From Betaproteobacteria bacterium HGW-Betaproteobacteria-1 (lineage in GTDB: Bacteria; Pseudomonadota; Gammaproteobacteria; Burkholderiales; Methylophilaceae), in NCBI GenBank assembly GCA_002842435.1, contig PHCX01000004.1, forward strand, positions 180,209 to 244,208: a DNA stretch of 64,000 bases, written 5' to 3'. Position numbers and translations under genes: made by a program. The notes beneath the pieces are model-generated. The model saw only the letters and a program-made list of their open reading frames with translations. It was not told the origin of the DNA and searched no databases. Every line of letters starts with the position of its first letter. Position 1 is the first letter of the stretch. Of the stretch, positions 37,383-39,116 are shown piece by piece.

Positions 37383-37781
37383 ATGCATTCAAATTACCTG
37401 AAACTTCCAGCATGGCTGATTGTACTCTGGCTGATCAGCCTGCAGATACTTGCGCCATTTGTCCATGCGCATCTGGAGGCAGATGGTGTTCATCATGCCA
37501 GTGTCATGCATTTGCACACGGCCGCATCCCCCGCACATCATGCCCATGATACAAACCCTGTGCTGGAAAATCCACATGGACCGCATCAAATCGTCTCGGT
37601 TGCAGAGGGCATACCCAAGAAAATCGAGCCATCGAACTGGTTGGATCTGCTGCCAGCCTTGTTTATTGCCTTGTTTGCCCCGTTACTGACGGTTTTTGTC
37701 AGTGGCTTTCAGTACCAGTCAAAGTTTTTTCCATTCTTTCGCCACCGAAGTCCCCAGCCCCACGCCCCTCCCTGCTTCTGA
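37383..37781 (+). CDS. His-rich exported or membrane leader protein ending HAPP (DUF2946/CruR-like uORF candidate)
   Basis: N-terminal hydrophobic segment, 14 His, second hydrophobic segment, C-terminus RSPQPHAPPCF; directly upstream of the efflux operon. Confidence 0.75.
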   Translation: MHSNYLKLPAWLIVLWLISLQILAPFVHAHLEADGVHHASVMHLHTAASPAHHAHDTNPVLENPHGPHQIVSVAEGIPKKIEPSNWLDLLPALFIALFAPLLTVFVSGFQYQSKFFPFFRHRSPQPHAPPCF

Positions 37782-37850
37782 TTTCCATTCCGCGCTCTGA
37801 GCCGGATAAAAGCCAGTGTTTGCCTCTGGCTGCTTGTACGAAATCAGGAG
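37775..37850 (+). promoter_or_regulatory. Anti-Shine-Dalgarno stem linking the leader stop region to the czcC-like RBS
   Basis: CTTCTGATTTC (37775-85) pairs over 11 bp, one G-U, with GAAATCAGGAG (37840-50), which contains the SD AGGAG; inner stem AGCCAG/CTGGCT. Confidence 0.65.
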
Positions 37851-37856
37851 ATTTAT

Positions 37857-39116
37857 ATGTATGTCCGTTCGTTTATCCAACTTGCCGTTGGACTTAGTTT
37901 AGCTTCCTCCTTGCTACTGTCTGCGACAGTTGCTGCAGTTGAGCTTGAACACCAGGATGTGCTGGAAACCAATCCGGTATTGAGCCTGAAAGAGACGCTG
38001 GAGCTGACCTTCAAGCGCAATCCGCAGCAGTACCAGTTGCAGGCACGGGATCGGGATGTGCTCGCACGCCAGTCCCGTTCTGCCACTCTTTTGCCCAAGC
38101 CGCCTGCGCTGGCGTTGAGCCATCAGAACGATGGTCTCGGCAGTGGTCGCGGTGAACGCGAATGGCAGGCGGATGTCGAGATTCCGCTCTGGCGTCTGGG
38201 TCAGCGTGCCGCACGCACGGCCGTGGCAGAAAATGCCCAGCTTGGCGTACAGGCCAGTCGCGAGAGCCTGTTGCTGGCGGTTGCCGGTCAACTGCGTGAG
38301 GCGGTTTGGGAACTGAAGATGACGGAGAGCCAGCTGGCGCTCGCCAAATTGCGCCATGAAACAGCGCTGGCGCTGGAGCGTGATGTCGAGCGCCGGTATC
38401 AGGCCGGTGAGCTGGCCAAAACCGATCTCATGCTGGCGCAGCAGGAATCACTGCAAGCGAGGACCGAGACCGTGCGTGCCGATGCCGAACTGAATCATGC
38501 CCGCCATCGTTACTCAGTGCTGACCGGATTGCAGCAGATTCCCGGTCAGCTGGAAGAGGCACAGTCTTCGCTGGAAACCTATAGTGAAGCACACGCGTTC
38601 TGGCAGGAAGCGGAAGCACGGGTCAAGTTGGCGGAACAGGAACGTAACCTGAGTACGGTGGAAAGCCGCGACAATCTGCAACTGGTGGTCAATACGCGCA
38701 GCCAGCGCGGCGCATTCGACAACGCCTACAACGACAGCGTCGGTCTCAGCGTCCGTATTCCGCTCAGCAGCGAGAGCCATACCGCACTGCAGCTGGCTGC
38801 CGCCGACATGCAGGTGGCGCAGGCGATCGCCGACCGTGAGCGGTTGCGTTATCAGCTCGAGACCGCCATGCACGAGGCGGAACACAATCTGGCCGTGACC
38901 CGGGCCGAACTGCAGATCGCCAGCGAGAATGAGGCGATCGCGCGGGAGAGCCTGCGACTGGCCGAGAAGGCCTTCCAACTGGGCGAGACCGATCTGGTCG
39001 CGCTGTTAAGGGTGCGCACGCAGGCCTATGAGGCCGAGCGCGCGCTGAGTGCGCGGCAGATACAACTTCAATGGGATATTGCCCGCTTTAACCAGGCTGT
39101 AGGAGTTTTGCCATGA
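37857..39116 (+). CDS. Outer-membrane factor of a heavy-metal RND system (CzcC-like)
   Basis: Signal peptide, RRYQAGELAKTDL, KAFQLGETDLVALL. Confidence 0.88.
   Translation: MYVRSFIQLAVGLSLASSLLLSATVAAVELEHQDVLETNPVLSLKETLELTFKRNPQQYQLQARDRDVLARQSRSATLLPKPPALALSHQNDGLGSGRGEREWQADVEIPLWRLGQRAARTAVAENAQLGVQASRESLLLAVAGQLREAVWELKMTESQLALAKLRHETALALERDVERRYQAGELAKTDLMLAQQESLQARTETVRADAELNHARHRYSVLTGLQQIPGQLEEAQSSLETYSEAHAFWQEAEARVKLAEQERNLSTVESRDNLQLVVNTRSQRGAFDNAYNDSVGLSVRIPLSSESHTALQLAAADMQVAQAIADRERLRYQLETAMHEAEHNLAVTRAELQIASENEAIARESLRLAEKAFQLGETDLVALLRVRTQAYEAERALSARQIQLQWDIARFNQAVGVLP

Follow-up and report, generated by a model that had tools for sequence, protein, structure and literature searches.

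Sensing of a metal through the nascent chain has so far been shown only for copper, with cysteine ligands, in CutF and CruR. In CutF of Rhodobacter capsulatus, a copper-induced stall at a C-terminal proline motif melts a stem that covers the cutO ribosome-binding site (PMC9973294; 10.1101/2025.02.05.636593). CruR (Bp2923) of Bordetella pertussis is a DUF2946 protein with a CXXC and a RAPP motif, in which copper relieves the stall and Rho represses a TonB-dependent transporter (PMC9426467); the stall places two proline codons in the P and A sites of the ribosome (PMC12992588). In the upstream open reading frames (uORFs) of the RQH family, QAPP and HAPP have experimental support as arrest cores, and QAPP and HAPP mutations lower arrest in vitro (PMC10987492). 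The locus described here lies in a 64,000-nucleotide (nt) stretch of Betaproteobacteria bacterium HGW-Betaproteobacteria-1 (contig PHCX01000004.1, positions 180,209 to 244,208), referred to below as the window, where a 132-aa open reading frame (ORF) precedes the genes of a heavy-metal efflux pump of the resistance-nodulation-division (RND) type. We consider, with moderate confidence, that this ORF is an arrest-peptide leader and that a ribosome paused on it unmasks the pump operon's Shine-Dalgarno (SD) sequence. This interpretation was first put forward in a reading of the DNA letters alone (the sequence-only reading), and the computational tests run since have supported it. The leader and its parts are as follows.

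37383 to 37781, plus strand: leader ORF of 132 aa with 14 His, ending HAPPCF-stop (ORF reading of the window; close homologues and cluster search).
37389 to 37487, plus strand: N-terminal hydrophobic helix, residues 3 to 35, predicted export signal or anchor (AlphaFold2 (AF2) helix, predicted local distance difference test (pLDDT) up to 95).
37464 to 37589, plus strand: His-rich segment, residues 28 to 69, predicted to be periplasmic, with HAH, HASVMHLH, AHHAH and ENPHGPHQ (His invariant in the close clade).
37638 to 37727, plus strand: second hydrophobic helix, residues 86 to 115 (AF2 and family hydrophobicity; the sequence drifts and the hydrophobicity is kept).
37740 to 37772, plus strand: C-terminal tail RHRSPQPHAPP, residues 120 to 130, candidate arrest sequence (homologue alignment).

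On rereading the window, every coordinate of the ORF and of its HAPPCF end was correct to the base; the H-A-P-P codons occupy 37761-37772 and the stop codon, TGA, 37779-37781. The C-terminus of the protein reads ...RHRSPQPHAPPCF and its sole Cys is residue 131. An export signal and a second hydrophobic helix had been claimed from the letters, and both are compatible with the sequence and with the two helices of the AF2 model; the His-rich segment was likewise confirmed. The N-terminal helix closes on the motif P25-F-V-H28-A-H30, of which P25, H28 and H30 were invariant in 71 diverse family members. Residues 36-85, which link the two helices, were modelled as a low-confidence coil that runs across the His-rich segment, so that no globular or folded periplasmic domain is predicted. 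The last His of the window leader is separated from Pro129 by ~61 residues, close to the family median of 63.

The conservation of the tail was followed at two depths. The first homologue search returned 19 homologues with 46-83% identity, all from Methylophilaceae and all annotated as 'hypothetical'. Q125, A128, P129 and P130 were invariant in these sequences, which carry QP[QH]APP plus two to three residues at identities down to 46%; in the same alignment the His positions of the N-terminal half were invariant and the second hydrophobic helix drifted. A profile search of 1.84 billion representatives gave 90 clusters at 50% identity. The clusters mostly end in PRAPPxx, the canonical RAPP, and have in common LQxxxP[FL]xHxH and GxHxH near the N-terminus. 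An x[AG]PP motif was present ten residues or fewer from the C-terminus in 235 of the 241 retrieved members (variants LAPP, 107; RAPP, 92; QAPP, 24; HAPP, 4), and exactly two residues followed PP in 192 of these 235. The spacing between HxH and the proline had a median of 100 residues (interquartile range 99-103), and the end of the hydrophobic segment preceded the first proline by a median of 29 residues. CxxC or CxxxC was found in only 5 of 235 members, and invariant HxH and GxHxH motifs stand in its place. The claim made from the letters alone, that of a HAPP motif, was therefore modified: the xAPP tail is conserved, but HAPP itself is not, as His is a minority variant of [R/L/Q/H]APP. When the 64-kb window was scanned for further small ORFs with an xAPP end, none was credible, and a scan of metagenomes with a narrow alignment returned only 4 loci.

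The second conserved feature is an RNA helix that joins the stop codon of the leader to the SD of the first pump gene. Its elements are listed here.

37775 to 37785, plus strand: 5' arm of the closing helix (anti-SD), which takes in the TGA stop together with the 4 coding nt before it and the 4 nt after it (pairing, folds and alignment).
37840 to 37850, plus strand: 3' arm of the closing helix, holding the SD AGGAG at 37846-37850 (pairing, folds and duplex tests).
37789 to 37806, plus strand: interior hairpin 1 of the intergenic region (folds and alignment).
37811 to 37831, plus strand: interior hairpin 2 of the intergenic region, with compensatory changes among relatives (alignment of relatives).

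The sequence CTTCTGATTTC (37775-37785) is complementary to GAAATCAGGAG (37840-37850) over 11 bp including one G·U, and the pairing with the SD of the efflux gene that had been proposed from the letters was thus confirmed. The SD is located 6 nt ahead of the ATG at 37857 of a 419-aa OEP-family protein, at the end of an intergenic region of 75 nt. In both the minimum free energy (MFE) and the centroid structures, the closing helix encloses a three-way junction with the two inner hairpins. The 90-nt segment 37773-37862 folded with -29.1 kcal/mol (z = -3.84; 0 of 200 shuffles as stable); when longer flanks were included (141 nt) the total energy was unremarkable (z = -0.59) and the closing helix was still predicted. 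The window duplex had an energy of -15.1 kcal/mol, compared with -7.7 +/- 2.0 for shuffled 5' arms, and of 172 windows covering leader and intergenic sequence, it was the stop-codon window that paired best with the SD region. A search of the leader-pump intergenic region against Rfam (E <= 1) gave no match.

In most loci the stop region again pairs with the SD, through sequences that differ by lineage. The helix is CUUCUGAUUUC/GAAAUCAGGAG in the window clade, CCUAAUUAAAUCA/UGAUUUAAUUAGG in locus L028, CUAAAAACAU/AUGUUUUUAG in L026 and CCUGAA/UUCAGG in L024; L017 and L019 have one-sided or register-shifted variants. In loci with a helix anchored on the stop codon, the partner is UCA for UGA stops (window clade, L021 and L024) and UUA for UAA stops (L026 and L028). 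In 23 of the 24 loci compared, the cognate stop/SD duplex was stronger than duplexes made with shuffled 5' arms, and in 10 of 16 no other window over ~340 nt paired with the SD region as well as the stop window did. Hairpin 2 shows GC to AU exchanges in 3 sequences, plus further two-sided changes, among the relatives of the window, and both inner hairpins covary in Methylopumilus. Both features on which the sequence-only reading depended, a HAPP/RAPP-type motif and the pairing, were thus found to be conserved in homologous loci.

In full-length folds, the bases paired with the SD lay at -1 to +17, counted from the start of the first Pro codon, and most often at +9 to +12. Ribosomes protect the ~15 nt that follow the first nucleotide of the P site on its 3' side. 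With Pro-Pro in the P and A sites, a stalled ribosome would thus sit on the anti-SD or unwind it.

Gene order was compared in 15 Methylophilaceae loci and in nine more, taken from four close and five distant (~25-30% identity) homologues. In the window and in L001-L011 and L013-L030, the leader was directly upstream of OEP-CzcB-RND genes or of CzcB-RND genes followed by one for an outer-membrane protein. The same order was present in Methylobacillus flagellatus (L025) and Thiobacillus denitrificans ATCC 25259 (L029), and in the nine further loci the genes upstream of the leader were unrelated. Heavy-metal RND pumps are usually viewed as under two-component or MerR-type control; no two-component or MerR regulator was found within ~10 kb of the operon. 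The sole exception in gene order was L012, where member P0022 (RAPP, 453-851) precedes a 102-aa ORF and a HupE/UreJ gene. This neighbour agrees with the published context of His-only CutF-like proteins, whose clusters 14 and 17 adjoin HupE/UreJ and not RND pumps (PMC9973294).

The arrest-leader reading is supported by the conservation of xAPP, of its distance to the stop, of gene order and of the stop/SD pairing to ~25% identity, by the covariation of the interior hairpins, by the lack of a nearby two-component or MerR regulator, and by the CutF-cutO mechanism, which was shown experimentally. We infer the pause itself and its tuning by metal, and the sequence of events might be as follows. The ribosome would pause with the first Pro codon (37767-37769) in the P site and the second (37770-37772) in the A site, when residues up to ~70, and with them the entire His-rich part, would already be out on the periplasmic side. 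The paused ribosome would occupy or unwind 37775 to ~37782, the partner bases of AGGAG, and the freed SD would let a second ribosome initiate on the OEP gene; the pause would also cover a C-rich tract at the end of the leader and keep Rho off the transcript. After a short pause, termination would allow the helix to re-form and translation of the pump would stay low. By analogy with CutF, metal on the exported His cluster would probably prolong the pause and so induce the exporter, although the direction of the effect, like the involvement of metal, is presumed. The releasing force would be supplied either by translocation or by the second hydrophobic helix as it inserts into the membrane. It is possible, as a tentative extension, that the family is a nascent-chain sensor of a periplasmic metal other than, or besides, copper (Zn, Co, Ni or Cd) and the sole dedicated regulator of its heavy-metal efflux (HME)-RND pumps, acting without a transcription factor. 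Metal binding to HxH/GxHxH would then compete with insertion of the helix ~29 residues from the arrest point to control release of the stall, with SD unmasking and Rho exclusion as a dual output.

Several observations weigh against the arrest-leader reading. The SD of the leader itself is poor (GGA, 2 nt ahead of the ATG). The commonest family variant is LAPP, while only RAPP and RGPP were reported to be strongly refractory to elongation factor P (PMC12992588). In the window clade, all changes in the closing helix are one-sided (C-G to U·G), with no double compensation among them. The anti-SD of L029 is just 3' of the stop and the geometry is looser in some Thiobacillus loci, and the stop window was not the best SD partner in L030, L012, L024 and L027. 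The sequencing runs with matches were DNA metagenomes from groundwater and soil, together with a single weak run labelled as RNA (assembler contigs). Lastly, every terminating ribosome opens the helix, so that a regulated pause is not logically required.

This last point leads to plain translational coupling, in which the helix would keep the SD of the pump closed as long as the leader is not translated, any ribosome that reaches the leader stop opens it, and neither a specific pause nor tuning by metal has a part. On termination, a ribosome (P site at 37776-37778) would cover the whole 5' arm, and the position of the anti-SD in L029 suits termination better than a Pro-Pro stall. However, coupling of this kind leaves unexplained the invariance of xAPP, its two-codon distance to the stop, the ~100-residue spacing from HxH and the match to experimentally supported arrest cores, and we regard it as unlikely.

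Attenuation as in CruR was also considered, with this tract as the candidate site of action.

37730 to 37807, plus strand: the most C-rich, G-poor 78-nt stretch of the 64-kb window on the plus strand, a candidate rut (Rho-loading) tract (44% C, 99.97th percentile).

The tract overlaps the codons of the arrest motif. A stalled ribosome would shield rut, and its release would lead to Rho termination before or within the pump genes, with masking of the SD as a secondary effect. The composition of the tract and the CruR precedent are in line with this, but Pro and Ala codons force part of its C-richness, the intergenic region of 75 nt is short beside the 162 nt of CruR, and a conserved helix that sequesters the SD is what characterises the translational mode of CutF. 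Rho attenuation as the principal mechanism seems improbable here, although it can coexist with the translational mode.

It is very unlikely that the mature protein is the real function, as a membrane-anchored periplasmic His-rich pump accessory (a CzcI-like quencher or a metal chaperone) with APP being incidental: CzcI, encoded just before czcC, does act at the protein level by quenching CzcCBA in the periplasm (PMC10127602) and the His motifs are strongly conserved, but the AF2 model has no folded periplasmic domain, the cytoplasmic tail is the best conserved part besides the His motifs, CzcI has no Pro motif, and exported CutF is undetectable and quickly degraded. A protein-level role could still exist alongside the leader role.

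The genes of the operon downstream of the leader are as follows.

37857 to 39116, plus strand: outer-membrane efflux protein of the OEP/TolC family, first pump gene (Pfam OEP, E = 7e-29).
39113 to 40255, plus strand: periplasmic adaptor, a CzcB/CusB-type membrane fusion protein (family profile matches).
40231 to 43317, plus strand: heavy-metal RND permease of the CusA/CzcA family (TIGR00914, 1085 bits, above cut-off).
43319 to 43636, plus strand: small DUF3240 (P-II-like) protein, encoded last in the operon (Pfam DUF3240, E = 2.7e-20).

The pump had been called CzcCBA-type. An HME-RND efflux operon is indeed present, but its Czc identity is not demonstrable from sequence. The nearest solved structures to the permease were the zinc pump ZneA (665 bits) and then CusA (596 bits). 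Transmembrane helix 4 reads AIG..DAA..VEN as in CusA, and CusA Met573, Met623 and Met672 align to G, Q and E, respectively. An assignment of the metal was tried and rejected, as the motif of transmembrane helix 4 is CusA-like but the methionine triad is lost and the overall best structure match is ZneA. From its sequence, the permease may represent a separate HME subgroup. The DUF3240 ORF begins 2 nt past the end of the RND gene and probably belongs to the pump operon as a conserved fourth gene.

The flanking genes encode lipopolysaccharide- or envelope-related enzymes. Genes for a sulfatase-family (phosphoethanolamine-transferase-like) protein, a cytochrome b561 and a PAP2 protein accompany the leader-RND operon in the window (31824-37160) and in L005, L013-L024, L027 and L029; this company is kept in close relatives, and in the distant Thiobacillus loci these genes are divergently oriented. 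Their presence suggests a functional link of envelope modification with the pump. Further downstream, a thiamine pyrophosphate riboswitch (RF00059, 64.5 bits) is found at 43914-44015 on the plus strand, upstream of thiC (44045-45928).

Upstream, a conserved 45-aa hydrophobic ORF, MLYAIFNISALIAIILHMTGHLERWGMEWILIVFAIAVFPAVIYL, is located at 37164-37301 on the minus strand, divergent from the leader. It shows codon-like variation over nine aligned loci and was called as a gene in L018, L021 and L024; a Pfam search with it gave no match. The 81-nt divergent region between the two ORFs (37302-37382) holds the invariant block AAGTAGTAA.AT.AAA. A sigma-70 scan of 37100-37900 returned no promoter. 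A candidate promoter scoring 8/12 (-35 TTAATA at 37327-37332, -10 TAATAT at 37350-37355) was proposed on conservation only and is too weak for a consensus scan. Three 'terminator-like' matches were disregarded because they are inside coding sequence.

The relationship of the leader to DUF2946 was examined at the level of profiles. The Pfam DUF2946 model (PF11162) matched residues 10-59 of the window leader with 14.7 bits (E = 0.052), below the gathering threshold of 23.7 bits. Among the 71 family members, none matched DUF2946 at E <= 0.01, and 17 gave weak matches with a best E of 0.052. An NCBIfam search with the leader gave no match. Alignment of the 71-sequence family profile with hhalign to 12 DUF2946-annotated sequences from a published supplement covered only the 16-column RAPP tail, with a probability of 17.8%, and homology to DUF2946 is therefore not claimed. 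Membership of Pfam DUF2946 was rejected on the subthreshold score, the lack of CXXC/CxxxC and the restriction of the profile-profile match to the tail.

The functional definitions gave a different outcome. Under the operational rules of Ozturk et al. (2023), a CutF-like protein has fewer than 150 aa, PP among its last 15 residues, an N-terminal signal and a next gene on the same strand at 1000 nt or less. The window ORF has 132 aa, PP at 129-130, an N-terminal hydrophobic helix (from sequence and AF2) and a gap of 75 nt; predicted folds and duplex tests also give it the intergenic stem that shields the downstream SD. It carries the [R/Q/H]-[A/G]-P-P of a small localised uORF by which the RQH motif was defined (PMC10987492), and in place of the secA, secDF or yidC found downstream of RQH peptides it is followed by OEP, CzcB and RND genes. 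As in CruR, the family has a C-terminal xAPP two to three residues from the end, at a fixed spacing to the metal motif. The leader was filed as one that works like CutF, in a sister or analogous His-only family, because it has the properties set out in the operational and RQH rules and falls outside Pfam DUF2946.

Relatives of this leader have been catalogued before. The survey of Ozturk et al. (2023) listed 5,334 'CutF-like' proteins, whose commonest neighbours were OEP/RND genes, and analysed intergenic lengths and not stem conservation (PMC9973294). The source data of Fujiwara 2025 contain RAPP uORFs, 530 of them before TolC-family genes and 620 before RND adaptors (PMC12992588); one entry, WP_123236085.1, is member P0114 of the window family. 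The main text of that study makes no mention of efflux, and the efflux-linked entries are listed in the source data only and are not discussed or tested there (PMC12992588). A search restricted to RAPP/RGPP would miss the QAPP/HAPP clade of the window. The novelty that had been seen in the contrast with CruR, namely an arrest that induces detoxification, did not hold, as CutF already does so by melting of an SD stem and OEP/RND neighbours had already been surveyed. The leader is a real, conserved regulatory leader of the described CutF/CruR-like kind, and the principle is already published. Three aspects, as judged from sequence, appear to be new in a modest way: the Cys-free, His-only family outside Pfam DUF2946, its near-exclusive link to HME-RND pumps, and the conserved stop-codon/SD helix inside the footprint of a Pro-Pro-stalled ribosome.

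The only conserved control element at the pump locus is a translated leader. If the arrest-leader reading is true, nascent-chain metal sensing across the membrane extends to a Cys-free His sensor and to efflux pumps, and ~90 clusters of uncharacterised 'hypothetical protein' gain a function. Cultured hosts of the family exist (Methylobacillus flagellatus, Pseudomethylobacillus aquaticus and Thiobacillus denitrificans ATCC 25259), and annotation pipelines could be given a model of this leader family, which at present escapes both Pfam and NCBIfam.

Compared with the known systems, the leader resembles CzcI of Cupriavidus metallidurans in being a small exported protein encoded directly upstream of the first pump gene, and differs from it in having a C-terminal Pro motif; this comparison was made by description and position and not by sequence, and a tblastn search against 72,556 plasmids gave no match. 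With the RAPP-like or 'RQH' peptides (ApdA, ApdP and uA/uDF_RQH; Sakiyama 2021, Fujiwara 2024) it shares a C-terminal [R/Q/H]APP in a small secreted or membrane uORF, whereas the characterised RQH members control sec or yidC genes and sense translocation rather than metals. Like CruR, it is a small exported uORF that heads a metal operon, has a RAPP-type motif two to three residues from the C-terminus at a fixed distance from the metal motif, and is C-rich at its 3' end, in keeping with a Rho component. In CruR, however, the CXXC is at 45 residues, compared with ~100 for HxH here, the intergenic region has 162 nt instead of 75, and the output is an importer repressed through Rho. The closest likeness is to CutF of the R. 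capsulatus cutFOG operon, with which it has in common a small Sec-exported leader, a periplasmic metal-ligand motif, a C-terminal Pro-rich motif of the stalling type and a short intergenic stem over the downstream SD. Unlike in CutF, the ligands are His only (HxH and GxHxH, with no CxxxC), the arrest core is xAPP instead of PPP, an additional hydrophobic helix precedes the tail, and the target is an HME-RND pump where that of CutF is a multicopper oxidase.

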